64,000 nt of DNA from Chitinophagales bacterium (GCA_038206235.1 JBBRBB010000008.1:36304-100303), one strand, 5' to 3'. Counted from the first letter of the stretch, positions 7,024 to 64,000 are shown. Notes: generated by a model from the sequence alone, not told the origin. Numbers and translations: made by a program.

Positions 7024-7072
7024 CTGACTGCTAACTGTTTACTGCTGACTGTTTACTGCCAACCGCTGACTG
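7024..7072. repeat. Heptamer tandem array (CTGACTG-type, 7 units) abutting the rplT stop codon
   Basis: ctgactg ctaactg tttactg ctgactg tttactg ccaaccg ctgactg. The next nucleotide, 7073, begins the rplT stop codon. Confidence 0.85.
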
Positions 7073-7417
7073 CTATTTCACCGCATCTATCAAAGCCTTA
7101 AAGCTCGCAGGTTCATTCATGGCCATGTCTGCAAGAATCTTTCTGTTTAATTCAATTCCCTTTGTATTCAATGCATGAATAAATTCGCTGTATGTTAAAC
7201 CTTCTGCTCTTACAGCAGCATTAATACGGGCAATCCATAACCGGCGATATTCACGCTTTTTATTTTTGCGGCCTACATAACTATAGGTCATTCCCTTTTC
7301 TACAATATTTTTGGCAACGGTATAAACGTTTTTACGCTTGCCGTAAAAGCCTTTGGCCTGCTTTAGAATTCTTTTTCTTCTTGCCCTTGATGCAACTGTA
7401 TTTACTGAACGTGGCAT
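7073..7417 (-). CDS. rplT: 50S ribosomal protein L20
   Basis: [30 protein letters not shown]... is a canonical L20 sequence. Confidence 0.97.
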
Positions 7418-7430
7418 GGTTAATTATTTT

Positions 7431-7458
7431 AGATTGAAGATTGCAGATTTAAGATTTT
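7431..7458. repeat. Heptamer tandem array (AGATTNN, 4 units) between rpmI and rplT
   Basis: agattga agattgc agattta agatttt. Confidence 0.6.
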
Positions 7459-7516
7459 TGTTTTCCAATGCAAATGGTGATTAGAATTTTTATTATCCCT
7501 TTAGCAGCAGGGATTT

Positions 7517-7714
7517 TTATTTTAAACGCAGCAAGCGCATTACAAAATCTTTGTTAGGCGCAGCAACAAGACCTTTATGGCGAAGATTTCTTTTGCGTTT
7601 TTTTGATTTCTTTGTGAGGATGTGCCGCTTATATGCTTTCTGATGGGTGATCTTTCCTGAAGCCGTTACCCTAAAGCGCTTCTTGGCGCTGGAGTTTGTT
7701 TTTACCTTTGGCAT
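7517..7714 (-). CDS. rpmI: 50S ribosomal protein L35
   Basis: [22 protein letters not shown]... is a canonical L35 sequence. The start is taken at the internal ATG (7714). Confidence 0.95.
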
Positions 7715-7841
7715 TCTAATAATCTTTTTTAAGATTACTCCCTGCTGGCGTTTCCGCAATGGTGCAGAACACTTGTTAGAGCCTTGTGGGAAATGGGCGG
7801 CAAAAGTAAGGAGAAGAACTTAAAAAATCTAACACTTATTA

Positions 7842-8816
7842 TTATCCGGCAAAATACTTTAATTCCTCATCGAAATTTAAACCCGAATATCTTTCCTGCA
7901 GCTCTAATGTTTTAGCATAAAATCGTTGCAGAAATTGTTTGTGCTGTTGGGATTGGGGATTGAAAGCTTTATGATTTTTTGCAATCATTATTTTTTTTAT
8001 TTCTTCCATCAACTGGCGGTTTTCTTCATTCATGCAGCTTTCGGTAAATTTTTCAAGCACAAACTCTGTAGCTGCATAGTTGGGATGAACAAGGTCAATA
8101 TCAAAGAAACGATAATCACGCAACACATCAATCACTAATTCATAAGCAGGAAAATAATACAGCTTTTCAAATTTATTTATAAGATGATGAACAGCTTCAA
8201 TTAATCTTGCTTTGCTTCGGTTATTATCAACTACGCCGTCGCGTATATGGCGCACAGGGCTAATGGTGAAAATGATTTTTATTTTTTGGTTGAAATTAAA
8301 AAGCCGGTGAATGGTATTATCGAATGCAGCGATAATTTCATTGTTGCTGCATAAATGTTTATCAAATGTTTGTGCCACTGCCCGATGACAGTTCGCCACG
8401 GGCTCATTTGTTTCTGCAAGTTTGTAAACAAAAGCCGAACCCAATGTTATCATCAGCCAATCGGCTTCGGCTAAAAAATGATGAGCTGTTTGTTGTGATA
8501 GATTAATATTCTGCAAACATGCTTCTTTATCAGGATTTGAAAAACGGCTGTGATGCTGCCAGCTATGCCAGCATTCATTCAGATAAAAAAGTTCTTCTTC
8601 GTTGTATTGCTTGTTTTGAATGTATGAAATAAGACTGCTGCAAGCACTAAGCGGATTAAACAAAATTCCATTTGGATTTTGAAGTGTATTGAATTTTGTA
8701 TTGGCGAGACAATCACCAATATGTTCTGTAAAGCAACTGCCAATAAGCAAAATTTTATCGCTGTATGTTATCGGTAGTGATAAAGATTTTATATGTATGG
8801 GCAATTGAAACTGCAT
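7842..8816 (-). CDS. GSCFA-family protein
   Basis: N-terminal LIGSCFTEHIG matches the eponymous GSCFA motif. Length of ~320 aa is typical. Confidence 0.85.
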   Translation of the reverse strand: MQFQLPIHIKSLSLPITYSDKILLIGSCFTEHIGDCLANTKFNTLQNPNGILFNPLSACSSLISYIQNKQYNEEELFYLNECWHSWQHHSRFSNPDKEACLQNINLSQQTAHHFLAEADWLMITLGSAFVYKLAETNEPVANCHRAVAQTFDKHLCSNNEIIAAFDNTIHRLFNFNQKIKIIFTISPVRHIRDGVVDNNRSKARLIEAVHHLINKFEKLYYFPAYELVIDVLRDYRFFDIDLVHPNYAATEFVLEKFTESCMNEENRQLMEEIKKIMIAKNHKAFNPQSQQHKQFLQRFYAKTLELQERYSGLNFDEELKYFAG

Positions 8817-8818
8817 GT

Positions 8819-9298
8819 TTATTTTTCTTGTTCAAAATGTAAAATCATTTTTTCTCCGGCAGGCAAATCATACCATTGCTGTATTAACTTGCTATATAAA
8901 TCTCTGATTGTTTCTAATTGATGATTCGATAGGGGAGGAGGTATAATTGTATTATCGTTGTTGATGAAACTTTCAGCTAACACCTTATAAAAATCATCCA
9001 ACTTTCCCTGCGCCATTTCTATGGTTAGCAAGTTAACAAGATGTTCGGTAATGATTGCTTCCGGCGTTAACTGAAATTTCCGTTGGGCTTTTGGCAATTC
9101 AAAATCTGTGATGGATACTCCGCCTGCGAGCATGCCATAAAATGCGCTTTTATATGCAAGGCTTGTTTCTACGGCATAATGCATCAGGTCGTGGGAAATA
9201 AAAAAATCATCACACTGCATCCATGTTTGGGTGCCATCATTTCTTATACATGAAATGGTATGCTTTTTATTTTCATGCCTGGTAAAAAAAATTTCCAT
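8819..9298 (-). CDS. Hypothetical protein (HDLMH motif)
   Basis: 159-aa ORF packed tightly between HMG-CoA lyase and the GSCFA gene. No family recognised. Confidence 0.6.
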   Translation of the reverse strand: MEIFFTRHENKKHTISCIRNDGTQTWMQCDDFFISHDLMHYAVETSLAYKSAFYGMLAGGVSITDFELPKAQRKFQLTPEAIITEHLVNLLTIEMAQGKLDDFYKVLAESFINNDNTIIPPPLSNHQLETIRDLYSKLIQQWYDLPAGEKMILHFEQEK

Positions 9299-10155
9299 TA
9301 CACAAAAATTTCTGATGCAAGTCGCAAACTTTCAGCTAATGCAGCTTTATCAATATTATTAAGTAAAGCCTTGCTTTCAAAATAATTAATCATGAATTCA
9401 GTGGGCATATTTCCCACCAAATCATCCTGTGCCATAGGGCAGCCGCCAATCCCTTTTAATGCGCCCTCGAATCTTGTGCAACCCGCATCAAGAGCGGCTT
9501 TCAGCTTTTCTTCCATAATATATGCAGTAGAATGAAGATGCACACCAAACTGCACCTGCGGATATTTTGGAATTAATGTCTTTAATACAAAACTTATTTG
9601 CTGTGGTGTTGCAAGCCCAACTGTATCAGCAAGAGAGATAACAGAAATATTTTTCGTTACCATTTCATTTGCCCAATGAATTAATATATCTTCATTATAT
9701 TCATCATTATACGGATTACCAAAACCCATGCTAAGGTAAATCACCAAGTTTTTGTTGTGCTTTATACATAGTTGCTGAATCTCATCAACCCTGATTATAC
9801 TTTCTTCAATGGTGCTGTTTGTATTTCTTAATTGAAAGGTTGCTGAAATGGAAAAAGGAAAACCGAGATAATTAATTATATCGTGTTGCACAGCTTCTTC
9901 TGCGCCTCTCACATTTGCGACAATAGCTAATAGCTTTGAGCCTGTAAACTTGTGAACTTGTAAACCTTTCAACACTTCTTTTGTATCTGCCATTTGCGGA
10001 ATTGCTTTTGGTGATACAAAGCTGCCGAAATCAAGGGTATGAAAGCCAACACGCAAAAGAGCATTTATATAGTCAACTTTTTTTTCGGTGGGAATAAAAT
10101 GTTTCCATCCCTGCATAGCATCTCGCGGGCATTCGATTAATTGTATGTTTTGCAT
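9298..10155 (-). CDS. Hydroxymethylglutaryl-CoA lyase (HMGL-like TIM barrel)
   Basis: N-terminus IECPRDAMQG, with DTVG and HLHSTA-type motifs. The 285-aa length fits. Confidence 0.85.
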   Translation of the reverse strand: MQNIQLIECPRDAMQGWKHFIPTEKKVDYINALLRVGFHTLDFGSFVSPKAIPQMADTKEVLKGLQVHKFTGSKLLAIVANVRGAEEAVQHDIINYLGFPFSISATFQLRNTNSTIEESIIRVDEIQQLCIKHNKNLVIYLSMGFGNPYNDEYNEDILIHWANEMVTKNISVISLADTVGLATPQQISFVLKTLIPKYPQVQFGVHLHSTAYIMEEKLKAALDAGCTRFEGALKGIGGCPMAQDDLVGNMPTEFMINYFESKALLNNIDKAALAESLRLASEIFV

Positions 10156-12935: not shown

Positions 12936-12961
12936 TTATACATCATTAGCCGGTATTTGCA

Positions 12962-12997: not shown

Positions 12998-13013
12998 CGG
13001 TAACAAAATGTAA

Positions 13014-15741: not shown

Positions 15742-16746
15742 ATGCGAAAACTCCTTTTTCCTTTCATCGTTGTTTTTCTATTTGCTGCCTGCAAAAAAGA
15801 AAATCTTTCTGTTACCGAAAATAAGATTGCAAAGAATGAGCTTAACCTCCGGGTGGCTGAAACCAATATTGCAATACTTGAGCACAAGGCATTGCCATCA
15901 GCAACTGACCCCAACATCCATACGTCAACCATTGGCAATCCCACTCAATACGCATACCTGCCTGCAAATGCAACCTTGCGGAAAGACAATTTATTTATTT
16001 TTATTCCCGGTACAACAGCCACACCCGGCGGCTATCTTAAAATTGCTAAAGCCGCAGCCCAACAGGGTTATTACAGTTTTGGAGTAGCTTACAGCAATCT
16101 TTTTCCTATTGAATTTTATGAAGGAATAAATCCTAATGACAACACTGTTGAAAATATTCTGGATGAATATCTCGAGGGCATAGATGTTTCACCGAAGGTA
16201 AATGTATCAAGAGCGAATAGTTTTGAAAACAGGATAATCAAAATGATTTTATACTTAGATGCAAATTATCCCGCTGAAAACTGGAAAAGATTTTTAAACT
16301 CCAGTAATGAAATATGCTGGGACAAACTTTCTGTTGCCGGTCATTCACAGGGCAGCGACCATGCAATGTATATGAGCAAGGCAAGAAGTGTTTTAAGGGC
16401 AGGCTTCTTTGGCGGTCCCGGCAGTTTTAAATTAAACAACGGACAATATCCAACCTTTATGCAGGAGCCTGGTTTCACACCCGATGAAAATTTATATGGC
16501 TTCAATCACACAAGAGATTTAATACGCCTATGGGCCGATGTGAGACCTACCTGGGAAGTGTTGGGATTGCCCGGTATGCCTAACAGTGTAGATGACAGAA
16601 TGGTAAACGGCGATCATAAATTAACCACCTCCCTGCAATCGAATGATGCGCATAGCTCACCTGTTGCGGATGCCGCTACGCCTAATGATGCAAACGGAAA
16701 TCCGCTGTATGAGCCTGTGTGGGATTATATGTGCTTTCCAAGATAA
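15742..16746 (+). CDS. Alpha/beta-hydrolase-fold lipoprotein
   Basis: Lipobox LFAAC. Nucleophile elbow GHSQGS. Confidence 0.7.
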   Translation: MRKLLFPFIVVFLFAACKKENLSVTENKIAKNELNLRVAETNIAILEHKALPSATDPNIHTSTIGNPTQYAYLPANATLRKDNLFIFIPGTTATPGGYLKIAKAAAQQGYYSFGVAYSNLFPIEFYEGINPNDNTVENILDEYLEGIDVSPKVNVSRANSFENRIIKMILYLDANYPAENWKRFLNSSNEICWDKLSVAGHSQGSDHAMYMSKARSVLRAGFFGGPGSFKLNNGQYPTFMQEPGFTPDENLYGFNHTRDLIRLWADVRPTWEVLGLPGMPNSVDDRMVNGDHKLTTSLQSNDAHSSPVADAATPNDANGNPLYEPVWDYMCFPR

Positions 16747-16802
16747 TGTGCTAATGTGCTAATGCGATAATGCGATAATATGATAATAAGATAATGAGCT
16801 AT
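16747..16802. repeat. Octamer tandem array (TAATG-containing, 7 units) starting right after the stop codon
   Basis: tgtgctaa tgtgctaa tgcgataa tgcgataa tatgataa taagataa tgagctat. In the alternative phase the unit agataatg includes the last codon and the stop (16741-16746). Confidence 0.85.
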
Positions 16803-18829: not shown

Positions 18830-20710
18830 ATGAAAAAGATATTTATTAAATCATTTATTTTTCTTTATCTGCAGGTATGTTTTATTTACAACACTTCTGC
18901 CCAGCCGGGTAACTTAGATAAATCTTTTGGTACAGATGGAAAAACAGTTACAGAGAATACTTTTAAACTTTTCTCACTCGCTATACAAAGAAATGGTAAC
19001 ATTATCGCCGGTGGGCAAGGTACTTCTATAATTGGAACACCAAATACAAGTTTATTTGCTGTGCGTTATACGCCAGATGGTATCCTTGATAATTCGTTTG
19101 GGGAGAATGGAATATTAAAATATGCCCCGGAAGATTATATTCTTACCGAAGGGCAGTATGCAATTGTTCAGCCTGATGATAAAATAATAGTAGCCGGAAA
19201 TGGCTATAAAGATTATTATTATTCGAATGCTGTTTTTGATTGGATTGGCAACTACAACCTTATTCTGCGCAGGTATATGCCTGATGGAACGCCTGATTCA
19301 AGTTTTGGAGAAAATAGCGTAGTTATTACAGATTTTGGTGAAAGAGACTTTGTTAAAGAAGTGGCTTTGCAAACCGATGGTAAAATTATTGTAGCTGGCG
19401 GACGCAGCTTTGATTATGGCGGTACTGACAGCTTTCTTATATGCCGCTATTTGCCAAACGGTATGCTTGATGAAAGTTTTGGTGATAAGGGAAAAGTATT
19501 TGATGATTTTGGAGAATGTTCTTCCTTGGTCATACAAAGAGATGGAAAAATATTAGTTGGTGGCACAACATCAGGAAGAAGTTTTATTTTTTTCAGGTAT
19601 AACAGTGACGGCACAAGAGATATAACCTTTGACCATGATGGAAAATTATTTACCGATTTAACTAAATATGGAGAATATTTACGGGATATAGCTGTGCAGG
19701 ACGATGGTAAAATACTGGCGGCAGGGTTAAGCAATTACAGATTTGAACCCAAGGAATATTTCGGCGATATGGTTGTGCTGAGATATAATGACGATGGAAG
19801 TTTTGACAGCACTTTTGGTATTAATGGAAGAAAAGACATAAAATTTGATACAAGTTCAGATGCACGTTCAGTATCTATACAAAAGAACGGAAAAATAGTA
19901 TTGGCAGGTCTTGTAACTAATGATTATATAAGTTATTCAGATTTTGCTTTAGCAAGATTAAATACGGATGGCTCGCTTGACACCACCTTTGGAGTTGAAG
20001 GAAAACAAAAATTGGATATTGATGTAAGTGATGGATTTAATGCCTCATTAATTCTTAATGATGGAAAAATTCTTGCTGGAGGATATACTTACTCGGCCGT
20101 TCCATATCCGGGAGCCTTTGTTCTCACCCGCTACTTCGGCGACCCCATTCAACAATCCCTCATCACCAAAATCAAACGGTGGATTCGCAATCACATCCTC
20201 AACTTCCAGGATGCAAATGCAAACAACACCGCTTACTATGTAATTGAAAAAAGCAATAACAGCAGCAACGGCTTCAAAGAAGTGGCGACGATTAATCCGT
20301 CAACTGTCAACCGGCAACCAACCACCGAATACAGCTACGCTCTTCCTTCAACATCAACAGAGAGTCTTTACAGAATAAAAGCAGTTAGCAACGATGGCGG
20401 CGTTGCATATTCCGATGTTATTGCAGATGAATCAACTTTTCAACCAATCAACTCTTCAACTCTTCAACTATCCCCCAATCCCGTAAAAGATGTCTTGCAT
20501 GTGCAGGGGTTAAGTGCATCTCCGCAAGGAGTCCTTTGGACAAACAAAACAACGCTCATCATTTCAAACATTCAGGGAAATGTAATTAAAAGAGTAAGCA
20601 TGCAGGCAGATAGCTATGATTTTGATGTTAGCACATTAAAACCGGGAACATATTATCTCAAAGCAGACACAGACAAAACCAGCAACACTTACCGGTTCAT
20701 AAAAGAATAA
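18830..20710 (+). CDS. Delta-60-repeat (beta-propeller-like) protein with T9SS CTD
   Basis: About 9 repeats of the motif LD.SFG.NG/DG(K)..., a signal peptide, and the C-terminus SPNPV...GTYYLKA...YRFIKE. The start is taken at ATG 18830. Confidence 0.75.
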   Translation: MKKIFIKSFIFLYLQVCFIYNTSAQPGNLDKSFGTDGKTVTENTFKLFSLAIQRNGNIIAGGQGTSIIGTPNTSLFAVRYTPDGILDNSFGENGILKYAPEDYILTEGQYAIVQPDDKIIVAGNGYKDYYYSNAVFDWIGNYNLILRRYMPDGTPDSSFGENSVVITDFGERDFVKEVALQTDGKIIVAGGRSFDYGGTDSFLICRYLPNGMLDESFGDKGKVFDDFGECSSLVIQRDGKILVGGTTSGRSFIFFRYNSDGTRDITFDHDGKLFTDLTKYGEYLRDIAVQDDGKILAAGLSNYRFEPKEYFGDMVVLRYNDDGSFDSTFGINGRKDIKFDTSSDARSVSIQKNGKIVLAGLVTNDYISYSDFALARLNTDGSLDTTFGVEGKQKLDIDVSDGFNASLILNDGKILAGGYTYSAVPYPGAFVLTRYFGDPIQQSLITKIKRWIRNHILNFQDANANNTAYYVIEKSNNSSNGFKEVATINPSTVNRQPTTEYSYALPSTSTESLYRIKAVSNDGGVAYSDVIADESTFQPINSSTLQLSPNPVKDVLHVQGLSASPQGVLWTNKTTLIISNIQGNVIKRVSMQADSYDFDVSTLKPGTYYLKADTDKTSNTYRFIKE

Positions 20711-22774: not shown

Positions 22775-23770
22775 TTAATTTTTTTTATTTATCAACTGCT
22801 GCAATGCCGCCTGAATTGAAGGGTATAAAAAAGTGAAGCCCGTTTGTCTTATTTTTTCAGCACTTACCGTAGTGCTTTTTAAAACTTCTATGCTCATTTC
22901 ACCCAGCATCCATCTTAAAATAAAGGAAGGAACATGCAGTGAGATAAAATATTTTCCGCGTATAGCTTTTGCAAGTTGCAACGTGAAGTCTTTATTTTTT
23001 ACAGGCATTGGCGCAACTGCATTATACACACCCTGAAGCTGATTGTTTTCCAGTGCATGGATATACATTCTGCAAATGTCATCAATATGAATCCAGCTTA
23101 TCACTTGTTCGCCATTGCCTAAAATAGCAGCCATACCTTTCTTCACAGGCTTTTTAAATTCTTCATAAGCGCCGCCATCATTACTAAAAACAATCCCTGT
23201 TCTTAAAATAACCAATCGCTTTTGCAAATCTGTTACCGGCTCAATGCTTTGCTCCCATTGTTTACATGTATCTCCTAAAAAATCATCTGCAGCAAGTGCA
23301 TCTTCTTTAAAGCCCTCTCCCTTGGAGTCCCGATATTTATCGGGATGGGTGAGGTTGCAACCATACCATCCAATTGCCGAAGCGCTGATTACCGCTTTTA
23401 CTTTATTCGAAATTGTCTTTAAAGATGTAACAATTAAACCACTGCTTTTCGTTCTGCTCTCAACAATTTCCTGCTTTCGTTTCCTATTCCATTTTTTGTC
23501 AGCTATCCCTGCGCCTGCAAGATGAATAATGTAGTCAGCCTTTGCGAAAGAATCTTTATCAAGCCATCCTTCTTCAATATTCCATTGTGCATAAGAAATA
23601 TTTGACTGAAGACTTACAACTGATGACTGAGAACTAACGTCTGATGACTGCCGACTGCCAACTGATGACTGACGACTGACAACCACCACCTCATATCCTT
23701 TCTCCGCAAGCATTTGCGATAATCTTTTTCCTATCATTCCTGTGCCGCCTGTAATAAGTACTCTTGCCAT
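22775..23770 (-). CDS. TIGR01777/YfcH-like SDR (epimerase-family) protein with a 28-aa repeat insertion
   Basis: Rossmann motif ITGGTGMIGK. The DUF1731-like C-terminus is conserved. The insertion SRQSSVGSRQSSDVSSQSSVVSLQSNIS follows the second beta-strand. Confidence 0.85.
   Translation of the reverse strand: MARVLITGGTGMIGKRLSQMLAEKGYEVVVVSRQSSVGSRQSSDVSSQSSVVSLQSNISYAQWNIEEGWLDKDSFAKADYIIHLAGAGIADKKWNRKRKQEIVESRTKSSGLIVTSLKTISNKVKAVISASAIGWYGCNLTHPDKYRDSKGEGFKEDALAADDFLGDTCKQWEQSIEPVTDLQKRLVILRTGIVFSNDGGAYEEFKKPVKKGMAAILGNGEQVISWIHIDDICRMYIHALENNQLQGVYNAVAPMPVKNKDFTLQLAKAIRGKYFISLHVPSFILRWMLGEMSIEVLKSTTVSAEKIRQTGFTFLYPSIQAALQQLINKKN
23602..23685. repeat. Heptamer tandem array (NNGACTG, 12 units = 84 nt) embedded in frame in the SDR CDS
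   Basis: ttgactg aagactt acaactg atgactg agaacta acgtctg atgactg ccgactg ccaactg atgactg acgactg acaacca. This is the same unit family as the array at 7024-7072. Confidence 0.85.
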
Positions 23771-33976: not shown

Positions 33977-34009
33977 AAACCTCACAGGTCTTAAAGACCT
34001 GTGAGGTTT
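33977..34009. repeat. REP-like palindrome, type 2
   Basis: aaacctcacaggtc-ttaaa-gacctgtgaggttt is a perfect palindrome. A second locus lies at 59048. Confidence 0.75.
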
Positions 34010-35225: not shown

Positions 35226-35273
35226 AGTCATTAAGTCATTAAGTCAATGAGTCAATAAAGTCATTAGTGATAA
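35226..35273. repeat. Octamer tandem array (AGTCATTA; reverse complement TAATGACT), 6 units, 5 nt upstream of the DinB-like start
   Basis: agtcatta agtcatta agtcaatg agtcaata (a)agtcatt agtgataa. Confidence 0.8.
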
Positions 35274-35358
35274 AATTATCAAGCATTAGCAAAAAAATAA
35301 AATTTCCCATTTACTCAAGCTGATTTCAAGTCCCCCGAAGGGGGATTTAGGGGGCTTG

Positions 35359-40147: not shown

Positions 40148-40182
40148 CGTTTATCGTTTGTCGTTTGACGTTTATCGCCTGC
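40148..40182. repeat. Heptamer tandem array (CGTTTAT-type) starting at the first nt after the stop
   Basis: cgtttat cgtttgt cgtttga cgtttat cgcctgc. Confidence 0.8.
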
Positions 40183-41991: not shown

Positions 41992-42132
41992 AGTAATAAG
42001 TTTTAGAAGTGATGTTTAAAAGAAGTACAGAATTAGGATACTAAGATACATAATAATAAGACAAAAAATTAAAACAAAAAGCGGCTCAGATAAATCGAAT
42101 CCGCTTAATTATTTTGCAGTAATTAGAATTCC

Positions 42133-42321
42133 CTACATAAACAATTTCACAAACGCAATCATTGCAGCCAATTGCCCAACCCAAAAAATAAACATCCATT
42201 TTATTATATCTGATTTAATTTCCCTCATTTCAATCCTTACGTTAGCAATATCTTCCTTTGTTGCTAAATCTGTTTTTTTTTCTTCAAATTTCTTTACAGC
42301 TTTTTCATCAAAATACTCCAT
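42133..42321 (-). CDS. Small coiled-coil protein with C-terminal TM helix (DUF1640-like)
   Basis: The pattern LATKEDIANVRIEMREIKSDIIKWMFIFWVGQLAAMIAFVKL. Confidence 0.5.
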   Translation of the reverse strand: MEYFDEKAVKKFEEKKTDLATKEDIANVRIEMREIKSDIIKWMFIFWVGQLAAMIAFVKLFM

Positions 42322-42441
42322 TATTGTAGAGGCCTCCTGCTCTCCAAATTTGCTTTTAAAGATATCATACGTTTTTAATTCTAATTGTTGACATCACATT
42401 TCTTTTCGTAAAGATAAAAAGATTAAAACTTAAAAATAACA

Positions 42442-42476
42442 TCCAACCTCCAACACCCAACTTCCAACTTCCAACA
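42442..42476. repeat. Heptamer tandem array (TCCAACN; sense to the CBS gene TGTTGGA) abutting the CBS stop codon
   Basis: tccaacc tccaaca cccaact tccaact tccaaca. The next nucleotide, 42477, is the CBS gene stop. Confidence 0.8.
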
Positions 42477-42905
42477 TTATGATTGAATATAGCTATGAAG
42501 ATGAGAGATAGTTTCTTCCTGAATAATGATTGTTTCAGTAACCACATCATTAATAGAAATAATACCTGTAAGCTTATCCTTTTCCATTACCGGCAAATAA
42601 CGCAGGTTGTTTGATGACATTAATTGCATGCAATATTCCACTGAATCATTTTCAGAAACTGAGTGAAGCTCACTCGTCATAATTTCAGAAACGGCAGTGT
42701 CTGTTGAAGACCTTCCTTTCAAAATAACTTTGCGTGAATAATCTCTTTCAGTCATAATGCCTAAAAACTTTTCGCCCTCCATCACTACCACAGAACCTAT
42801 ATTTTTAGCAGCCATCATGCGCAAAGCATCTATTACAGTGGCATTGGGTTCAATGGATGCAATGCTGCGGCCTTTACGGCTTAGTATATCTTTTACTTTG
42901 CTCAT
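42477..42905 (-). CDS. CBS-domain pair protein
   Basis: Two CBS motifs (GSVVVMEGEKFLGIMTERD and LPVMEKDKLTGIISINDV). Confidence 0.9.
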   Translation of the reverse strand: MSKVKDILSRKGRSIASIEPNATVIDALRMMAAKNIGSVVVMEGEKFLGIMTERDYSRKVILKGRSSTDTAVSEIMTSELHSVSENDSVEYCMQLMSSNNLRYLPVMEKDKLTGIISINDVVTETIIIQEETISHLHSYIQS

Positions 42906-49111: not shown

Positions 49112-49163
49112 ATCAAGGCAAAACCTGACTTACTTTATTTACCTTATATACTTTATATACCAA

Positions 49164-49718
49164 TTACTCTTTCGTTCCTTTTTGTACCACTTCTACCCTA
49201 ACTTTTGCCGTACCCGCTTTTGTAAAATTGAGCAGCCTGGCTGCAGTAACTGTAAGGTCAACTACTCTTCCTTTGGCTGCCATGCGGGGATGCATGCGGT
49301 CGTTTATACGAACTATAATTGACTTGCCATTGAGCAAATTAATTACCCGTACCCATGTATTTAATTTAAAGCTATTGCTGGCTGCGGTTAAATTTGAATG
49401 ATGAAAAATTTCACCTGTTGCTGTAAGCATTCCTTCAAAATATTTTGCATAAAAACTGGCAATGCCATAAGTGAGATTTTTCTTCTTTACCGTATCGGCT
49501 TTTGCGGGTTCCTTAGGATTATCTCTTGACTCATTTTCAATGCTATTATTATTCAGTGATTCAAATACAATGTTATTGTTAATTGCTGCTGTTTCCATAA
49601 CGTTGCCCAATGAATTTTCTTTGTTTTGTAAACTATCTTTGGCTTGTGCAGAAACTGAGGTAAATGACAGTGCGCTAAAACACACGATGAATACGAGGGT
49701 TAAGATATGATTTTTCAT
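49164..49718 (-). CDS. rlpA: RlpA-family (double-psi beta-barrel) lytic transglycosylase-like protein
   Basis: GIASFYAKYFEG..TATGE...VRVINLLNGKSIIVRINDR is a DPBB signature. Confidence 0.85.
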   Translation of the reverse strand: MKNHILTLVFIVCFSALSFTSVSAQAKDSLQNKENSLGNVMETAAINNNIVFESLNNNSIENESRDNPKEPAKADTVKKKNLTYGIASFYAKYFEGMLTATGEIFHHSNLTAASNSFKLNTWVRVINLLNGKSIIVRINDRMHPRMAAKGRVVDLTVTAARLLNFTKAGTAKVRVEVVQKGTKE

Positions 49719-50639: not shown

Positions 50640-51383
50640 ATGAAGATATTGGTCTGCATAAGCAAAACACCTGATACCACCGCAAAAATTGCATTTAAAG
50701 ATGGCAATACAAAATTCGATGATGCCGGTGTGCAGTGGATAATTAATCCTTACGATGAATGGTATGCGCTGGTAAGAGCAATTGAATTAAAAGAAAAGGA
50801 TGCTTCCATTGTGTTGCATCTTGTAAGTGTTGGCGGCGCTGATTATGACCCGGTGATAAGAAAAGCGTTGGCATTAGGCGGTGATGAAGCCATTCGTGTG
50901 AATGCAACTTCCGGCGACAGTTTTTATATTGCCTCGCAAATTGCAGTCATAGCAAAGCAAAATAATTATGATTTAATTTTCACCGGCAAAGAAACCATTG
51001 ACTATAACAGCGCTTCTCTTGGAGGCATGCTATCAGAAATGCTTGACCTGCCTTACATTTCGCTGGCAACAAAATTTGAACTCAATGGAGCAACAGCAAT
51101 TGTAACACGTGAAATTGATGGCGGCGAAGAAGTGAATGAAGCTGATCTTCCCCTTGTAGTAAGTTGCCAGAAAGGTGTTGCAGAACAGCGCATACCAAAC
51201 ATGCGTGGCATTATGTCTGCACGCACCAAGCCTTTAAAAGTTGTGGAACCAGTTGCAGCAGATACTTTAACTGCAGTTGTGAGTTATGAATTGCCGCCAC
51301 CAAAAGCAGGTGTAAAATTAGTGGCGCCCGATAATGTAGCAGAATTAGTTCGTTTGCTGCATGAAGAAGCGAGAGTGATTTGA
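50640..51383 (+). CDS. etfB: Electron transfer flavoprotein beta subunit
   Basis: MKILVCISKTPDTTAKI...INPYDE is a canonical EtfB sequence. Confidence 0.93.
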   Translation: MKILVCISKTPDTTAKIAFKDGNTKFDDAGVQWIINPYDEWYALVRAIELKEKDASIVLHLVSVGGADYDPVIRKALALGGDEAIRVNATSGDSFYIASQIAVIAKQNNYDLIFTGKETIDYNSASLGGMLSEMLDLPYISLATKFELNGATAIVTREIDGGEEVNEADLPLVVSCQKGVAEQRIPNMRGIMSARTKPLKVVEPVAADTLTAVVSYELPPPKAGVKLVAPDNVAELVRLLHEEARVI

Positions 51384-51436
51384 TAATGCGCTGATGAGAT
51401 AATGTGCTGATGTGATAATGAGATAATGTGCTAATG
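51381..51436. repeat. Octamer tandem array (..TAATG/..TGATG, 7 units) beginning with the etfB stop codon
   Basis: tgataatg cgctgatg agataatg tgctgatg tgataatg agataatg tgctaatg. Confidence 0.85.
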
Positions 51437-51535
51437 AAGAAAAGTGATGAAAGCATAATTTTTATGGAACCCGCATATAGAAACTTTTTCAACTTCGTTC
51501 TCCCGTTGGCGGAACTATTTTACGCTCAGTTCTTC

Positions 51536-51583
51536 ATTCAACAATTCAACAATATAACAATTCAACAATTTCAATATTCAATC
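51536..51583. repeat. Octamer tandem array (ATTCAACA, 6 units) upstream of etfA
   Basis: attcaaca attcaaca atataaca attcaaca atttcaat attcaatc. Confidence 0.8.
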
Positions 51584-51610
51584 TTAAATATTAATTATTA
51601 AATATAAATT

Positions 51611-52576
51611 ATGCCTGTTCTAATATTCATTGACCATTCAGAAAGCGAAATAAAAAAATCATCTCACGAAGCATTAACGTATGGCGCTGATATTGCCAAA
51701 CAATTAAACACCACAGCAGAAGGGTTATTATTAGGTACAGTAAAAGATGATTTAACTGCTTTAGGTAAACACGGCATTACAAAAGTTCATCAGGTTGCAA
51801 ATGAGTTACTCAATACTGTAGATGCTCAGGTTTATGCCAAAGTAATTGCAGAAGCAATTTCAGGTATTGGTGCCACAGTTGTTATCTTCTCTCACAATCA
51901 AACGGGAAAGGCAGTGGCAGCAAGGGCTGCAGCAAGATTAAAAGCAGGAATAGTAACAGGAGCCTGTGCTCTGCCTGGTACAAGTAATGGATTTGTGGTG
52001 AAAAAAACTGTATTCAGCGGTAAGGCATTTGAGAATGTCAACATCACTTCATCCATAAAAATAATTTCGCTTAATGTAAACAGTTATCATATTACTCATG
52101 GTGAAGGCACAGCAGAAGTTGTTCCATTAAATATTGCTGTTGATGCTCCGAAAGTAAAAATAACTTCTGTAAATAAAGTAAAAGGAGAAGTGCCTTTAAC
52201 CGAAGCTGATATTGTAGTAAGTGGCGGACGTGGTTTAAAGGGACCGGAGAACTGGAAAATGCTCGAAGACCTTGCACATGTATTACACGCTGCTACTGCA
52301 TGCAGTCGCCCTGTTGCAGATGCACATTGGAGACCACATAACGAACACGTAGGACAAACAGGAATACAAATAGCGCCCAACTTATATATTGCTTTGGGAA
52401 TATCAGGAGCTATACAACATCTTGCCGGAGTAAACAGAAGCAAGGTAATGGTTGTTATAAATAAAGACCCGGAAGCTCCCTTCTTCAAAGCCGCAGACTA
52501 TGGCATTGTAGGAGATGTGTTTGATGTAGTGCCCAAGCTTACAGAAGAGATAAAAAAGATGAAGGGAGTTTCATAA
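51611..52576 (+). CDS. etfA: Electron transfer flavoprotein alpha subunit
   Basis: The FAD-binding C-terminus (VSGGRG, LYIALGISGAIQHLAG) is present. Confidence 0.93.
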   Translation: MPVLIFIDHSESEIKKSSHEALTYGADIAKQLNTTAEGLLLGTVKDDLTALGKHGITKVHQVANELLNTVDAQVYAKVIAEAISGIGATVVIFSHNQTGKAVAARAAARLKAGIVTGACALPGTSNGFVVKKTVFSGKAFENVNITSSIKIISLNVNSYHITHGEGTAEVVPLNIAVDAPKVKITSVNKVKGEVPLTEADIVVSGGRGLKGPENWKMLEDLAHVLHAATACSRPVADAHWRPHNEHVGQTGIQIAPNLYIALGISGAIQHLAGVNRSKVMVVINKDPEAPFFKAADYGIVGDVFDVVPKLTEEIKKMKGVS

Positions 52577-54325: not shown

Positions 54326-55504
54326 TCAAAAATCAAGCGCTTTATTAATAAAGTTGCAAGCATGAACTAACTCATCATCGGATATTATTAGCGGAGGGCA
54401 GATGCGCATACATTCCGGCGCAAATAGAAACCAGTCTGTGATTAATCCATTTTCAATACATCTGTGAATTATTTTTTTATTGGTCTCAAAATTTTCGAAT
54501 TGCAAAGAAGCCCAAAGCCCGCAGCTTCTTATTTCAATTATCTTTTCCGAATGTATTAGTTCTCTTATTATTTTTTCTTTACAGCTTACCTCAGCTATAA
54601 GATTGGTTTGCAATAAAACATCAAGCGCTGCTTTACCTGCAGCACATGAAACAGGATGACCGCCAAACGTAGTGATATGTCCAAGCACGGGATTATGCGT
54701 TAAAACATTCATCAAACTTTTATTAGCTATAAAAGTGCCAAGCGGCATACCTCCACCAAGCGCTTTACCAAGAAGCAAAATATCAGGCACAATATCAAAT
54801 TGTTCAAATGCCCAGAGTGTGCCTGTTCTTCCAAAGCCACATTGCACTTCATCCAATATCAATAAAGCTCCCTGTTCATTGCACTTTTTACGCAGAGCCT
54901 GCAACCATTCTTTAGCAGGTTTATGTATGCCGCTTTCTGCCTGCACTGTTTCAAGAATTACGCAGGCAGTTTCGTCATTAATTTCTTCGAACACTTCATC
55001 ACTACCATAATTAAAATGATATATGTTTGGCAATAAGGGGCGATAGGAATTGCGCCAGTATTCATCACCCATAATACTTAATGCACCCTGCGTGCTTCCA
55101 TGATAACTTTTTTTAAATGCAATTATTTTAGAGCGATTTGTAAAACGCTTTGCCAGCTTCATGGCCCCCTCAGTTGCTTCCGTGCCGCTGTTTGTGAAAT
55201 AAACAGAGTTAAGGTTTGAAGGCAGATTATCAGTAATAAGTTTTGCGTAAGCTACCTGCGGCGCTTCAATAAATTCTCCATAAACAATCAAATGCATGTA
55301 CTGCGCAACCTGCTTTTGTACGGCTTCTACAACTTTGGGATGAGAGTGTCCAATGTTGGCAACATTAAAACCGGAAATAAGGTCAATATATTTTTTCCCG
55401 TTTACATCGAACTGGTAAATCCCTTCAGCCTTTACTATTTCCAAACCAATAGGAATGTTTGATGTTTGAGCAATATGCTGAAAAAAAAGCTGACGATAGT
55501 TCAT
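54326..55504 (-). CDS. Class III aminotransferase (acetylornithine/ornithine aminotransferase-like)
   Basis: SGTEATE, DEVQCGFGRTG and a KALGGG PLP-Lys context. Confidence 0.88.
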   Translation of the reverse strand: MNYRQLFFQHIAQTSNIPIGLEIVKAEGIYQFDVNGKKYIDLISGFNVANIGHSHPKVVEAVQKQVAQYMHLIVYGEFIEAPQVAYAKLITDNLPSNLNSVYFTNSGTEATEGAMKLAKRFTNRSKIIAFKKSYHGSTQGALSIMGDEYWRNSYRPLLPNIYHFNYGSDEVFEEINDETACVILETVQAESGIHKPAKEWLQALRKKCNEQGALLILDEVQCGFGRTGTLWAFEQFDIVPDILLLGKALGGGMPLGTFIANKSLMNVLTHNPVLGHITTFGGHPVSCAAGKAALDVLLQTNLIAEVSCKEKIIRELIHSEKIIEIRSCGLWASLQFENFETNKKIIHRCIENGLITDWFLFAPECMRICPPLIISDDELVHACNFINKALDF

Positions 55505-55539
55505 TGCTGATAGTTGGCTGATGATAGTTGATAGTATTT
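55505..55539. repeat. 7/14-nt periodic array abutting the aminotransferase start codon
   Basis: tgctgat agttggc tgatgat agttgat agtattt. Confidence 0.6.
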
Positions 55540-56179: not shown

Positions 56180-56399
56180 AAACAACTGCTAACAGGAGGT
56201 TTGCTGGCCGACGGAAGCAAAATCAGCTACAAATCAATATCAGCAATAGCTTCAGCTGAACATTATTAATTTAGCTTTAGTTGTTAACTTCATCTTTAGC
56301 CAAGCCCTAATGTTGTTTTGAAATTAAATAAATTGTTTCAGAGAGATTGCATCCGAACGTTAATAGAAATAAAGAAACAGATATGAAATGTTTTGAACT

Positions 56400-56434
56400 C
56401 AAACTACAAACCACAGACTACAAACTACAAACTG
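56400..56434. repeat. Heptamer tandem array (CAAACTA, 5 units) 4 nt upstream of a start codon
   Basis: caaacta caaacca cagacta caaacta caaactg. Confidence 0.75.
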
Positions 56435-56438
56435 TTTT

Positions 56439-58428: not shown

Positions 58429-58454
58429 TTAAAAACGAAGATGTATTTCATTAG

Positions 58455-59024: not shown

Positions 59025-59047
59025 AATTTTGTTCTAAGGTACAAAAT

Positions 59048-59108
59048 AAACCTCACAGGTCTTAAAGTTCAAACTAACCCTCACAGGTCTTTAAGACCTG
59101 TGAGGTTT
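59048..59108. repeat. REP-like palindrome type 2 with a partial duplication
   Basis: aaacctcacaggtcttaaag + ttcaaactaa + ccctcacaggtctttaagacctgtgaggttt. Confidence 0.7.
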
Positions 59109-59120
59109 GAAGATACTCCT

Positions 59121-59168
59121 CAACCTTTCAACTTTTCAACCTTTCAACTTTTCAACCTTTCAACATTG
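59121..59168. repeat. Octamer tandem array (CAACYTTT, 6 units) upstream of uvrD
   Basis: caaccttt caactttt caaccttt caactttt caaccttt caacattg. Confidence 0.85.
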
Positions 59169-59180
59169 TAACTTGCGTTT

Positions 59181-61505: not shown

Positions 61506-61533
61506 CGTTTATCGTTTTTCGTTTATCGTTTAT
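61506..61533. repeat. Heptamer tandem array (CGTTTAT) starting at the first nt after the uvrD stop
   Basis: cgtttat cgttttt cgtttat cgtttat. Confidence 0.85.
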
Positions 61534-61708
61534 TGGCATATTTAGCCTCTAACTCTTCTGCGGTAAATGTTACAAATTCTCCTCTTCCTGTTAGCCTCTG
61601 ATGACAATAAATACGTTGTCTTGCTTCTCATTCCCTTCATCAACTTATCAATCTTAATCTTTTCAATATTACATTTGTAAAACTTCTTACTTTAAATAAA
61701 AAGCTTTC

Positions 61709-62440
61709 ATGTCAGTTGATAAAGTTTTCGATGAAGAAATAAAAAAAGCATCTGACTTTAAATTTGGAACCACGGTTGCAAATGTGTTTGATGATATGGT
61801 CAACCGCTCTGTTCCTTTCTACGGTGAAATTCAAAGAATGATTGCAGAACTGGCTGCTGATTATGCACAACCTGATACTGAAATCTACGACCTTGGCTGC
61901 TCCACCGGTACAACTATGATTGGGATGAACATACTGGTTGATGAAAACATTGCATTTACCGGCATTGATGATTCTCCTGAAATGCTGGAGAAATGTAAAA
62001 ACAAATTAAGTGAAGTTGGGTTCAAACGTAAATATCAATTACGCGTTGCGGATTTAAACAACGGAGTGGAAATGAGCAATGCTTCCGTTGCTGTGCTCTG
62101 CCTTACGCTGCAGTTCATCCGTCCTATCTACCGTGAAAAATTATTGAGAAATATTTATGAAGGTCTTGTACCCGGCGGTGGCTTAATATTAGTAGAAAAA
62201 ATTCTTGCAGAAGACAATCGTTTCAACAGAGAATTCATTAACCATTATTATAACTACAAGCGCAGGAATAATTACAGTGAAATGGAAATTTCTCAAAAAA
62301 GAGAAGCACTGGAAAATGTGCTTATTCCTTACAAGCTTAGCGAGAACATCACTATACTCCGCGATACGGGCTTCGACCATGTGGAAGTTTTTTTTAAATG
62401 GTACAACTTTGCAGCATTAATGGCAATAAAAAAACAATAA
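61709..62440 (+). CDS. cmoA: Carboxy-S-adenosyl-L-methionine synthase
   Basis: Collinear with E. coli CmoA as I recall it: FDDMV.RSVP.Y, YDLGCS.G, L.LQF, and YSE(M/L)EISQKR..LENV. Confidence 0.9.
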   Translation: MSVDKVFDEEIKKASDFKFGTTVANVFDDMVNRSVPFYGEIQRMIAELAADYAQPDTEIYDLGCSTGTTMIGMNILVDENIAFTGIDDSPEMLEKCKNKLSEVGFKRKYQLRVADLNNGVEMSNASVAVLCLTLQFIRPIYREKLLRNIYEGLVPGGGLILVEKILAEDNRFNREFINHYYNYKRRNNYSEMEISQKREALENVLIPYKLSENITILRDTGFDHVEVFFKWYNFAALMAIKKQ

Positions 62441-63162
62441 TGGTACAAATTGGAAATTTCTTTTTCAAATACCGCAACTGGATTTTTATTCTCTTTTACC
62501 TCGCACTTTTTATTCCCTCGCCGCCACTATTTTCTCGAAGACATTTTAGTAACAACTATTATTTGTGGCCGATAATAATCGGCATAATCATAACTATCTC
62601 AGGTCAGTTGATTCGTGGCGCAACGATTGGACTTGCATACATTGTGCGTGGCGGCAAAGGAGGAAAGCCTTATGCAGAAGGGCTTGTAACAGAGGGCATT
62701 TTTAATCACTGCCGCAACCCACTGTATGTGGGTAATATTTTAATGCTGTTTGGAATAGGTATTTTATCTAACTCACTTTTTTACGTGGCGGTTATGATAC
62801 CTGTATTTTTATTCATCTACCAGGCTATCGTACTTGCTGAAGAAAATTTTCTGCGCGATAAATTCGGCGCATCATTCAATGAATATTGTGCAAGAGTAAA
62901 TCGCTGGATTCCCAATTTCAGCGGCATTGGAAAAACTTTCAGCGGCATGGAGTTTCGCTGGAAGAGATGGATACTGAAAGAGCATACCACGCAATTCATC
63001 TGGCTTGCAGGCATCATACTCATCCTGTTTTTAAAATATCCGCAGCTATCAAATTACAACATAGCGCAACGCAATAAAATTTTAATCATACTCTTATCAG
63101 CATTGGTATTAGTATATGCGCTGGTAAGATATTTAAAGAAGAGCGGCAAGATGGTGGAATAA
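62440..63162 (+). CDS. ICMT/PEMT-family membrane methyltransferase
   Basis: Multi-TM protein with LVTEGIFNHCRNPLYVGN (ICMT signature). Its start ATG overlaps the cmoA TAA (TAATG). Confidence 0.8.
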   Translation: MVQIGNFFFKYRNWIFILFYLALFIPSPPLFSRRHFSNNYYLWPIIIGIIITISGQLIRGATIGLAYIVRGGKGGKPYAEGLVTEGIFNHCRNPLYVGNILMLFGIGILSNSLFYVAVMIPVFLFIYQAIVLAEENFLRDKFGASFNEYCARVNRWIPNFSGIGKTFSGMEFRWKRWILKEHTTQFIWLAGIILILFLKYPQLSNYNIAQRNKILIILLSALVLVYALVRYLKKSGKMVE

Positions 63163-63190
63163 CGTTTAGCGTTTAGTGTTTCTCGTCAGT
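63163..63190. repeat. Heptamer tandem array (CGTTTAG/CGTTTAT family) starting at the first nt after the stop
   Basis: cgtttag cgtttag tgtttct cgtcagt. Confidence 0.7.
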
Positions 63191-63367
63191 TTCTGATTCC
63201 CCCCTTTCGAGTGCTGATTGAAGGGAGTGAGACCTAACAGTCAATTAGCTCACAGTAACTGGCAACTCACCACTCATGATCTCCAATTTTTCCGACTCCT
63301 GAAAGCTGGTATCTGAAAGCTGATACCTCCGATCTTTTCGTTATTTTTGCAGTTCAAATTATTTTGT

Positions 63368-63970
63368 ATGATTAAAACAGGTAATCCGGTCATCAGCATA
63401 TACACAGAAATGACTCCCAATCCTGAGACCATGAAGTTTGTAGCAAACAAACTTTTGTATCCTGGCAAGAGCATAGATTTTCAGGATGAATCTCAGGCAG
63501 ACCCATCGCCGCTTGCTAAAGAACTATTCAGCTTTCCCTTTATAAAAAGTGTATTTATTGCAAGCAATTTTGTAACACTTACAAAAACGCCCGATACGGA
63601 AGACTGGTACGAGGTTATACCTTCTGTAAAGCAATTTCTAAAAGAGTATCTTGAAAATGGCGAACCGATAATTAATGAAGAAGAAGTAGCAAAAACAAAA
63701 CAGGATACCGGCAATATTGTTTTGAGTGAAGACCCGGATGTGGTAAAGCGCATTAAAGAACTGCTCGATAATTATGTAAAGCCTGCAGTGGAAATGGATG
63801 GCGGTGCCATACAATTCAAGAGTTATGATGATGATGGCGTTTTAACCTTAATGTTGCAGGGAAGCTGCAGTGGCTGCCCCTCATCAATGATTACCTTAAA
63901 AGCAGGAATTGAAGGAATGATGAAACGCATGATACCAGAAGTAAAAGAAGTAGTGGCGGAGGCAGAGTGA
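63368..63970 (+). CDS. Nfu/NifU-like Fe-S cluster assembly protein (Nfu_N + NifU C-terminal domain)
   Basis: N-terminus IYTEMTPNPETMKF and C-terminus LQGSCSGCPSS. The start is taken at ATG 63368. Confidence 0.88.
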   Translation: MIKTGNPVISIYTEMTPNPETMKFVANKLLYPGKSIDFQDESQADPSPLAKELFSFPFIKSVFIASNFVTLTKTPDTEDWYEVIPSVKQFLKEYLENGEPIINEEEVAKTKQDTGNIVLSEDPDVVKRIKELLDNYVKPAVEMDGGAIQFKSYDDDGVLTLMLQGSCSGCPSSMITLKAGIEGMMKRMIPEVKEVVAEAE

Positions 63971-64000
63971 AGTTGCAGGAGTTGAATGGTTGAATGGTTA
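63971..64000. repeat. Octamer array (GTTGAATG) starting right after the stop; runs off the window
   Basis: agttgcag gagttgaatg gttgaatg gtta. Confidence 0.7.

Follow-up and report, generated by a model that had tools for sequence, protein, structure and literature searches.

The 64,000-nucleotide (nt) stretch of a Chitinophagales bacterium analyzed here (GCA_038206235.1, JBBRBB010000008.1:36304-100303; hereafter the window) carries numerous short tandem arrays of 7- and 8-nt units, which are enriched at the borders of coding sequences (CDSs) and strand-biased relative to transcription. Por_Secre_tail domains and the nearest UvrD, L20, CmoA, and EtfB homologues place the window, which has a GC content of ∼37%, in the Chitinophagaceae (Bacteroidota), near Parafilimonas. 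Whole units have been gained and lost between close relatives, the arrays are recent in the window's lineage, and an excess of period-7 repeats is a trait of the family. We consider it probable that the arrays are hypervariable simple-sequence repeats (SSRs) in untranslated parts of mRNAs that were born by slippage and filtered by selection, without dedicated machinery or function.

Repeats were called with Tandem Repeats Finder (TRF), and enrichment was evaluated at a score ≥30 and ≥3 copies against 30 dinucleotide-preserving shuffles of the window. Period 7 gave 12 TRF rows versus 0.23 per shuffle and period 8 gave 8 rows versus 0.17; the 20 rows of both periods together are ∼50x the shuffle expectation (∼0.4 per shuffle), and their density is ∼30 per 100 kb. 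Periods 5, 6, and 10 gave no rows in the window at the same thresholds. The original prediction, made from the window alone, had listed 15 arrays, and all of these were recovered, exactly or a few nt off, by TRF and by direct reading of the DNA, which also verified the unit sequences. Weak ones among them are 55505-55539 (58-71% matches), 63163-63190 (2.7 copies), and 63971-64000 (2.4 clean copies before the window end). Arrays absent from that list were found at 20297-20319 and 20430-20469 (both in one CDS), 42410-42436, and 51573-51612. The assertion that the period is never a multiple of 3 does not hold strictly, as a period-9 array is present at 49131-49161, 2 nt from a stop codon.

The arrays were described as spacerless and as neither hairpins, CRISPR arrays, nor elements with terminal inverted repeats, and this characterization was borne out. 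Most are predicted to be unstructured as RNA, with a minimum free energy (MFE) of ∼0. A CRISPR array is ruled out by the contiguous 7-8-nt units, as compared with the required 23-50-nt repeats with unique spacers, and an element of the repetitive extragenic palindromic (REP) or miniature inverted-repeat transposable element type is ruled out by the RNA MFE and by the lack of an inverted partner within 250 nt of any window array. No tRNA genes or Rfam families were found in the window. Logan contigs identical to the window stem from the same sample; they serve as an assembly check and are of no use for polymorphism. In the independent Logan assembly of run SRR19962011, three contigs are 100% identical to the window over 14.8 kb and include seven arrays. 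Because these contigs reproduce the seven arrays exactly, the arrays are not artifacts of one assembler.

Genes were mapped as long non-overlapping open reading frames (ORFs), and those adjoining arrays were checked by Pfam. Sixteen of the 21 merged arrays (76%) are intergenic, as compared with 16.4% of window bases (p = 2e-9). The intergenic arrays were then re-placed uniformly inside intergenic DNA 1000 times. Seven arrays in the window lie ≤2 nt from a stop codon (0.82 expected, maximum 4 in the re-placements) and seven lie ≤15 nt from a start codon (2.0 expected, maximum 6), giving 14 at either CDS border where 2.8 are expected and the maximum is 8. The concentration of arrays at gene boundaries put forward in the original prediction is therefore confirmed by re-placement within the window, with 14 of the 16 intergenic arrays at a border. 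Eight arrays had also been proposed to begin at or overlap stop codons. By TRF boundaries, arrays touch or overlap the stops of rplT, ORF 15742-16746, etfB, the M14 peptidase gene, the CBS-domain gene, uvrD, and the PEMT/ICMT-family gene; the eighth, after nfu, is loosely periodic from +1.

The C-termini of L20, UvrD (LNYAKLRIVE*), and EtfB (...HEEARVI*, 247 amino acids) are conserved in relatives. The arrays following these genes therefore begin at the real stop codon, and truncation of the genes by array-borne stops is ruled out. For 13 of the 27 stop-abutting arrays, the TRF alignment includes the last 1-22 nt of the CDS. Because canonical intrinsic terminators come after the arrays downstream of rplT and ORF 15742-16746, these two arrays are predicted to lie inside 3' untranslated regions (UTRs). 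The terminator hairpin of rplT is located ∼35 nt beyond its array, and the array at 16740-16802 spans the whole gap from the stop to the terminator hairpin CCGGAAG...CTTCCGG-T6. A putative Bacteroidetes-type -7-like box, TAAATTTG, is located 54 nt upstream of the ATG at 55504 and upstream of the 5' array of that gene. A TAnnTTTG promoter search of the window gave one clean match only, and promoter and terminator consensus scans gave counts at or below shuffle expectation and are uninformative for Bacteroidota promoters.

With strand sense taken as that of the gene abutted by the array, G exceeds C in 22 of the 27 stop-abutting arrays (G 261, C 119; p = 0.0015), and C exceeds G in all seven start-proximal arrays of the window, which are nearly G-free. 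Array-free flanks past stops have equal G and C (skew -0.02), and leaders in general are mildly G-depleted (skew -0.125). Given this flank skew, the strand rule of the 3' arrays cannot be attributed to local composition, which accounts only partly for the bias of the 5' arrays. Stop triplets in all three frames are present in 10 of the 27 stop-abutting arrays, versus 13% of array-free flanks (p = 0.0017). Start triplets occur in the window 5' arrays at 2.1 per 100 nt in the sense strand versus 8.4 in the antisense strand.

Relatives were represented by 80 uvrD-centered Chitinophagaceae loci (1.41 Mb in total), to which rplT loci of close and distant taxa were added. Periods 7 and 8 account for 5.1 arrays per 100 kb of the uvrD-centered loci versus 2.5 for periods 5, 6, 9, and 10 together, and period 7 is dominant among the tandem repeats of the 1.41 Mb. 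The corresponding values at rplT loci are 11.2 versus 2.3 for close relatives and 2.7 versus 6.3 for distant taxa, which show no period-7/8 excess. Array density differs widely among the genomes examined, and similar arrays are present in isolate genomes and in complete chromosomes of relatives. A metagenome scan with L20 gave no relative above 88%. Thirteen of 66 intergenic arrays in the relatives abut a stop codon (4.5 expected, maximum 11 in 1000 permutations). When window and relatives are pooled (82 arrays), 20 arrays are found ≤2 nt from a stop, where 5.3 are expected, and 16 at a distance of 3-10 nt, where 3.0 are expected, or 36 versus 8.3 expected at ≤10 nt. Start proximity is not assessable in the relatives because their start codons were approximated by the longest ORF; nine of their 'in-CDS' arrays located <100 nt from such approximated starts are probably leader arrays.

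Differences in unit number, which had been suggested as a sign of slippage polymorphism, are found between relatives. The close relative used was the Parafilimonas metagenome-assembled genome (MAG) GCA_040002775.1, which is 92-95% identical in DNA to the window (95% in contig L081, 92% in contig L167). The array 3' of etfB contains 10 octamers in L167 versus seven in the window, between conserved flanks, and the array 3' of rplT is 15 nt longer in L081 (∼2 units). The unit structure of the period-9 array at 49131-49161 also differs in L167; the array 5' of rplT is identical in L081 and the window. The relative represented by L165 (85% protein identity, same uvrD-cmoA-PEMT-nfu order) is without arrays at all four orthologous sites, which include the uvrD 5', uvrD 3', and PEMT/ICMT 3' positions, and 28 relatives (73-88% L20 identity) lack the array 3' of rplT. 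Adjacent units within an array are often identical pairs, and unit variants look like local duplications followed by point mutation.

Two features of these contigs concern the surroundings of the arrays. Synteny with L081 breaks directly past the rplT terminator: ∼2.3 kb of the window (4662-6958), including a gene for a protein with Sigma70_r2 and TPR domains, is missing there in L081, and window segment 4662-1076 comes directly at that point instead. Two short contigs of relatives, L167 and L168, end 119 nt and 66 nt past the etfB stop, respectively, inside the array-bearing spacer, which suggests that heptamer and octamer arrays can break short-read assemblies.

Arrays within coding sequences are present in permissive places and in frame only: an insert in an epimerase, a linker of a protein sorted by the type IX secretion system (T9SS), and the C-terminal region of UvrD. 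The epimerase array, delimited in the original prediction as 23602-23685, amounts to 84 nt or 4 x 21 nt, and upon translation 23603-23683 encodes a 28-residue insert of four VVSRQSS-like heptads. Its host (CDS 22775-23770, - strand) is a protein of the NAD-epimerase family with Epimerase and DUF1731 matches in Pfam, and the insert is located after strand β2, directly past the first Rossmann β-α-β unit. In UvrD, one site in the C-terminal region (ORF nt ∼2044-2108) carries heptamer arrays in 11 relatives, including L001, L006, L007, L017, L022, L023, L034, L043, L044, and L064. At least eight different units are found at this site (e.g., AAACCGG, CCGTCAA, CAGTCAA, AAACCAG, and CGCCAAC), and they encode low-complexity inserts with a 7-residue periodicity. 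The UvrD of the window is without this insert.

Unit clustering resolved the 21 window arrays into 18 clusters. A few unit families had been proposed, and recurrence was established for CGTTTAT, found in three arrays that are each flush past a stop, and for GATAATGN, found in two arrays that both overlap stops; no other family clearly recurs in the window. The sequences before the three CGTTTAT arrays are alike (GGAGTAG, GGAGTAA, and GGAATAA). Same-family unit pairs make up 17.5% of pairs within a locus versus 4.2% between loci, or ∼4x more within a genome, and unit repertoires are partly genome-specific. Arrays with unrelated units also recur at the same gene borders. The conserved uvrD stop is followed by arrays in about 10 relatives, with units such as TCGTGAA, AAGAGAC, GGTNNAN, AGGATTTG, GCCATTA, and AAGAAAC. 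The rplT leader (the rpmI-rplT spacer) is G-poor and heptamer-periodic in many Chitinophagaceae (lag-7 autocorrelation of 0.352 versus 0.28 for other leaders), with units AAACTYT, AAATCTN, or TTCGTAC in L084, L085, L090, L092, L106, L110, L119, and the window (7426-7458). Among relatives with 73-88% L20 identity, its position is conserved and its sequence is not.

A third such border is the etfB-etfA spacer of L169 (6742-6891) and L170 (1796-1954), which have 84% EtfB identity to the window. Octamers of TTTGAAAA extend from the etfB stop and octamers of TTTTCAAA extend up to the etfA start. The two arrays are reverse complements, and their pairing is predicted to give a long stem with the spacer looped out (MFE z = -2.6 and -4.2), which could constitute a translational-coupling device built from repeats. 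No pairing is predicted between the etfB and etfA arrays of the window (z = +0.9). In the window, the last etfB codons (…CATGAAGAAGCGAGAGT; 51354-51376) are 78% complementary over 23 nt to 51522-51544, just before the etfA array, and a similar motif, TCTTCATTCAAC, is present in the etfB-etfA spacers of L169 and L170. Inverted array pairs were observed at additional loci of relatives (L008 ∼5169-5270, L063 3750-3808, L069 3691-3749, L018 16283-16350, and L076 649-738); they fold into long terminator-like hairpins with stems of 7-8-nt repeats, e.g., CCTTCCCGTCTTCCCGCCTTACCG...CGGTAAGGCGGGAAGACGGGAAG.

Table 1. Tandem arrays in the window.
Position	Strand	Location	Units and remarks
7013..7075	-	3' array overlapping rplT stop (7073-7075)	sense CAGTCAG/CAGTAAA/CAGTTAG, period 7/14/21; TRF
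7426..7458	-	5' array 8 nt upstream of rplT ATG (7417)	sense AAATCTT/AAATCTG/CAATCTT, 1 G in 32 nt; TRF
16740..16802	+	3' array overlapping stop of ORF 15742-16746	TGYGMTAA x7; TRF
20297..20319	+	in-CDS heptamer array, linker of T9SS-sorted protein	CCGTCAA x3.3; TRF
20430..20469	+	in-CDS octamer array directly before Por_Secre_tail sorting domain	TCAACTYT x4.8; TRF
23603..23683	-	in-CDS array	NNACTGA-type on + strand; TRF periods 7 and 21
35226..35274	-	5' array ending 5 nt before ATG (35220) of DUF1572/DinB_2 gene	sense TAATGACT, 8 nt; also in Logan L163
37226..37252	.	mid-intergenic octamer array between divergent genes	TCTATGTG x3.2; one of two intergenic arrays off CDS borders
40148..40182	+	3' array from first nt past M14 peptidase stop	CGTTTAT x4-5
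42410..42477	-	3' array flush with CBS-domain gene stop (42477-42479)	sense GTTGGAA x5.7, no C
49131..49161	-	period-9 array 2 nt from stop of DPBB_1 gene (49164-49718, -)	TACCTTATA x3.4
51376..51437	+	3' array overlapping etfB stop (51381-51383)	seven 8-nt units, TGATAATG/TGCTGATG type
51536..51612	+	5' array reaching etfA ATG (51611)	ATTCAACA x4-6, then AATATTA-type; 0 G in 77 nt
55489..55539	-	weak 5' array at start (55504) of class-III aminotransferase gene	sense AACTATC; TRF 58-71% matches
56396..56434	+	5' array ending 4-5 nt before ATG (56439) of hexapeptide-repeat transferase gene	CAAACTA x5.6; 1 G in 38 nt
59120..59174	+	5' array ending 6 nt before uvrD ATG (59181)	CAACYTTT x5.6; 1 G in 55 nt
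61506..61533	+	3' array from first nt past uvrD stop	CGTTTAT x4
63163..63190	+	3' array from first nt past PEMT/ICMT-family gene stop	CGTTTAG x2.7
63971..64000	+	3' array past nfu stop (63970)	GTTGAATG, cut by window end

In sequence, the 3' arrays correspond to the reverse complements of 5'-type families, as exemplified by GTTGAATG after nfu and the ATTCAACA family before etfA, and by CAGTCAG after rplT and the CTGACTG/NNACTGA type. At the CBS-domain gene, which was assigned by Pfam from the annotation of L162 (100% identical to the window), the GTTGGAA array is adjoined by the T-rich octamer array 42410-42436. A 62-residue ORF at ∼42130-42320 (- strand), between the CBS and T9SS-protein genes, is called in L162 (3542-3730) and falls below the ORF cut-off used here; when it is counted, the arrays at 42410-42477 are flanked by the CBS stop and by a short gene downstream of it. 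The period-9 array lies between convergent genes and is without C in the sense of the DPBB_1 gene. A perfect REP-like palindrome (AAACCTCACAGGTCTT / AAGACCTGTGAGGTTT) is present at two intergenic loci, 33977-34009 and 59048-59108, and its core, CCTCACAGGTCT, has five matches in the window versus 0.07 expected. The copy at 59048-59108 sits within a 28-nt direct repeat (x2.2), which is located shortly upstream of the array 5' of uvrD.

Under the explanation that we favor, arrays would originate by replication strand slippage, frequently out of a seed sequence containing or adjoining a stop codon, and the survivors would be what selection tolerates, which inside genes would be in-frame linker copies only. 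In 3' trailers, the C-poor, G-rich strand alone would be tolerated, being well supplied with back-up stop triplets and different from the C-rich rut sites at which Rho loads. In 5' leaders, only the G-poor strand would be tolerated, since it would be without AUG, GUG, or UUG and without secondary structure. Such G-poor leaders would suit Shine-Dalgarno-independent initiation in Bacteroidota, which, according to PMC6847099, is adjusted through mRNA structure and the nucleotides upstream and not by Shine-Dalgarno sequences. Neither a dedicated machinery nor a dedicated function would be needed.

Several points weigh against this explanation. The 3' arrays are flush with the stop and not with the terminator, as illustrated by the ∼35 nt between the rplT array and its hairpin. 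Arrays with unrelated units recur at the same borders in separate lineages (past uvrD, past etfB and before etfA in L169/L170, and in the rplT leader), and neither the presence of CGTTTAT at three separate stops nor the 4x excess of same-family pairs within a genome is predicted by local seeding. Proximity to start codons is significant for the window arrays only. The UTR status of the arrays rests on sequence motifs, and start-codon avoidance, back-up stops, and Rho avoidance are reasons that we infer for the strand filter.

Because the flush placement at stops, the recurring borders, and the recurring units stay unexplained by slippage and selection, we keep as a possible, though clearly less probable, alternative that the arrays are selected cis-acting RNA modules. 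G-free leaders would serve as unstructured landing or enhancer sequences, or as platforms for single-stranded RNA-binding proteins of the S1, cold-shock, or RRM type, and trailers would act at termination or re-initiation or would pair with a downstream 5' array and so couple adjacent genes. Such modules would agree with an rplT leader that is conserved in position and remains the same in L081 while the 3' array varies, with the repeated appearance of different-unit arrays at the same borders, with the reverse-complementary etfB/etfA arrays of L169/L170 and their predicted stem from stop to next start, and with an orientation that follows the abutted gene and not local composition; for start-proximal TAACTGA repeats, a post-transcriptional regulator has been proposed as the binding partner (PMC4679880). 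However, the units are unrelated across loci and genomes and so provide no single binding motif, the arrays are absent at orthologous sites of an 85%-identity relative with the same genes, copy number is unstable at rplT and etfB, the etfB and etfA arrays of the window lack complementarity, inverted partners are missing for all window arrays, and similar arrays are also found in coding linkers. A more specific form of the idea, in which units drift freely because only composition, periodicity, and position matter, is doubtful: here the arrays would be modules of Shine-Dalgarno-less translation, with G-free leaders recruiting ribosomes or a single-stranded RNA-binding protein, C-poor and stop-rich trailers acting at termination, and complementary pairs coupling genes.

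The remaining explanations are weaker still. Instead of arising by slippage, arrays could have been written by a sequence- or site-specific process, as footprints of repeated insertion and excision (7-8-bp target duplications) or by templated repeat addition at breaks near gene ends, and 7-8 are common target-site duplication sizes. The similar bases preceding CGTTTAT at three stops and the genome-specific unit repertoires are in line with such a process, but we judge it improbable: the arrays are accompanied by neither a transposase nor terminal repeats, most units are found at one locus only (18 clusters among 21 arrays), the GGAGTAA end of uvrD is the conserved native C-terminus, within-array variants resemble local duplication and point mutation, and bacterial insertion sequence excision rarely leaves footprints. 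There is also little likelihood that the arrays function as DNA-level sites, either as tandem binding sites for transcription factors or nucleoid proteins or as phase-variation repeats that switch their neighbors by unit number. Such a role is on record for heptad repeats upstream of ctxAB (10.1101/2021.05.14.444153) and for those at contingency loci of Haemophilus (PMC8262952, PMC12721329), and unit number does differ between close relatives of the window; yet the neighboring genes are housekeeping genes (rplT, uvrD, etfBA, nfu, cmoA), half of the arrays are past stops, where promoter spacing is irrelevant, the strand rule tracks the direction of transcription, and units change from locus to locus. 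The housekeeping neighbors and the location of half of the arrays past stops likewise argue against membership in the contingency SSRs of phase variation, which lie in promoters or 5' coding regions of surface or restriction-modification genes and switch expression by unit changes. G-quadruplex or i-motif structures, are the favored explanation for the Xanthomonas and Nostoc heptamers, for which the same position-and-strand rule is reported (PMC4692102), but they are refuted for the window: GGG runs are present in 0 of 15 arrays checked and a CCC run in one, the units are AT-rich (e.g., CGTTTAT and TGATAATG), and without G-runs a G-quadruplex, which needs at least four tracts of ≥3 G, is impossible. 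Since the strand rule holds without quadruplex-capable units, it is independent of quadruplexes. An assembly or polishing artifact, at which the contig ends of L167 and L168 shortly past the etfB stop might hint, can be practically dismissed in view of the 14.8 kb of identical SRR19962011 sequence with its seven arrays, the similar arrays in isolate genomes and complete chromosomes, and the orthologous arrays in another MAG.

Heptamer SSRs are abundant in scattered bacterial lineages. The window and the 1.4 Mb from relatives extend the stop/start position-and-strand rule from the G-rich units of Xanthomonas and Nostoc to the AT-rich, quadruplex-incapable units of Chitinophagaceae, which argues that such repeats obey the rule in general, as a consequence of transcription, translation, or slippage, and not as a quadruplex effect. 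The cultivable relatives Parafilimonas terrae and Limnovirga soli are open to experiment. In practical terms, arrays of this kind vary in unit count, assemble poorly, can break contigs, and can mislead ORF start calling.

The original prediction could match the arrays to no named class of element, but they correspond to the heptamer type of long simple-sequence repeats (LSSRs) (PMC4692102, PMC4679880). As portrayed in these two citing papers, Mrazek (2007) found an excess of heptanucleotide SSRs in bacteria: among LSSRs with 5-11-nt units, heptamers were the most abundant, a non-coding bias was apparent, a slippage origin was proposed, and rich genomes were spread sporadically over Burkholderia, Xanthomonas, cyanobacteria, and actinobacteria. 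The window arrays have the attributes of heptamer LSSRs of the Xanthomonas/Nostoc type, namely head-to-tail units of 5-11 nt beyond chance (20 rows versus ∼0.4), a non-coding bias (16/21 intergenic versus 16.4% of bases), the G-rich strand coding past stops and the C-rich strand sense before starts (22/27 and 7/7), and variation in unit number or sequence at one locus among close relatives (etfB, rplT). For transcription, a further attribute of the type, the indications are indirect: terminators downstream of two 3' arrays and a -7-like box upstream of one 5' array. Going by the citing papers, Chitinophagaceae and a CDS-border rule were not found described for the LSSRs of Mrazek (2007); the kind of repeat is already catalogued, and its occurrence in the Chitinophagaceae lineage is not.

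The closest parallel in position is provided by the GGGNATC / GGGGA(C/T)T heptamers of Xanthomonas and Nostoc/Anabaena (Rehm et al., 2015; PMC4692102), ∼90% of which are intergenic. Their preferred places are the 50 bp past a stop, stop overlap included, where the G-rich strand is the coding one, or the 50 bp ahead of an ORF, where the sense strand is the C-rich one. Single arrays and inverted pairs are both known; most are transcribed, length and sequence differ from one close species to another, and the adjoining genes are of all functional classes, housekeeping genes included (PMC4692102). Tandem 7-nt units, an intergenic bias, and the position-and-strand rule are shared with the window arrays. 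In contrast, the window units are AT-rich without G-runs and have periods of both 7 and 8, each genome has many unrelated units in place of a single dominant motif, most arrays adjoin the stop directly (0-2 nt), and the host belongs to the Bacteroidota, which do not use Shine-Dalgarno sequences. The heptamer GGGAATC does not occur in tandem in the window.

TAACTGA direct repeats are located a few nt upstream of starts, those of ribosomal-protein genes among others, in Beggiatoaceae, cyanobacteria, and five Bacteroidetes, and in Flexibacter litoralis one set lies directly past a stop in reverse orientation (MacGregor, 2015; PMC4679880). The window arrays resemble them in start proximity and in the related units NNACTGA (23603) and CTGACTG (7013) but differ in having many unit families and half of the arrays at stops. 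TAACTGA itself is present in the window as 10 single copies versus 7.8 by chance, with no tandem dimers, and the arrays are not assigned to that class. Short tandemly repeated repetitive (STRR) heptamers of cyanobacteria (Calothrix PCC 7601) are cited in PMC4692102. Like the window arrays, they are tandem heptamers with several families per genome, dispersed and mostly intergenic. The STRR units CCCCAGT, TTGGTCA, and CAACAGT form no tandem dimers in the window, and its host is a member of the Bacteroidota and not a cyanobacterium, which excludes STRR membership. Finally, structure-based translational coupling through a ribosome termination structure, as outlined in PMC7518266, resembles the predicted stem of L169/L170, which extends from directly past the stop of etfB to the start of etfA; the window arrays are unstructured and unpaired, and the likeness is confined to these relatives and to prediction. 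Taken together, we conclude that the window arrays are a new lineage and a new AT-rich, multi-family set of 7/8-nt units of an already described kind of repeat.

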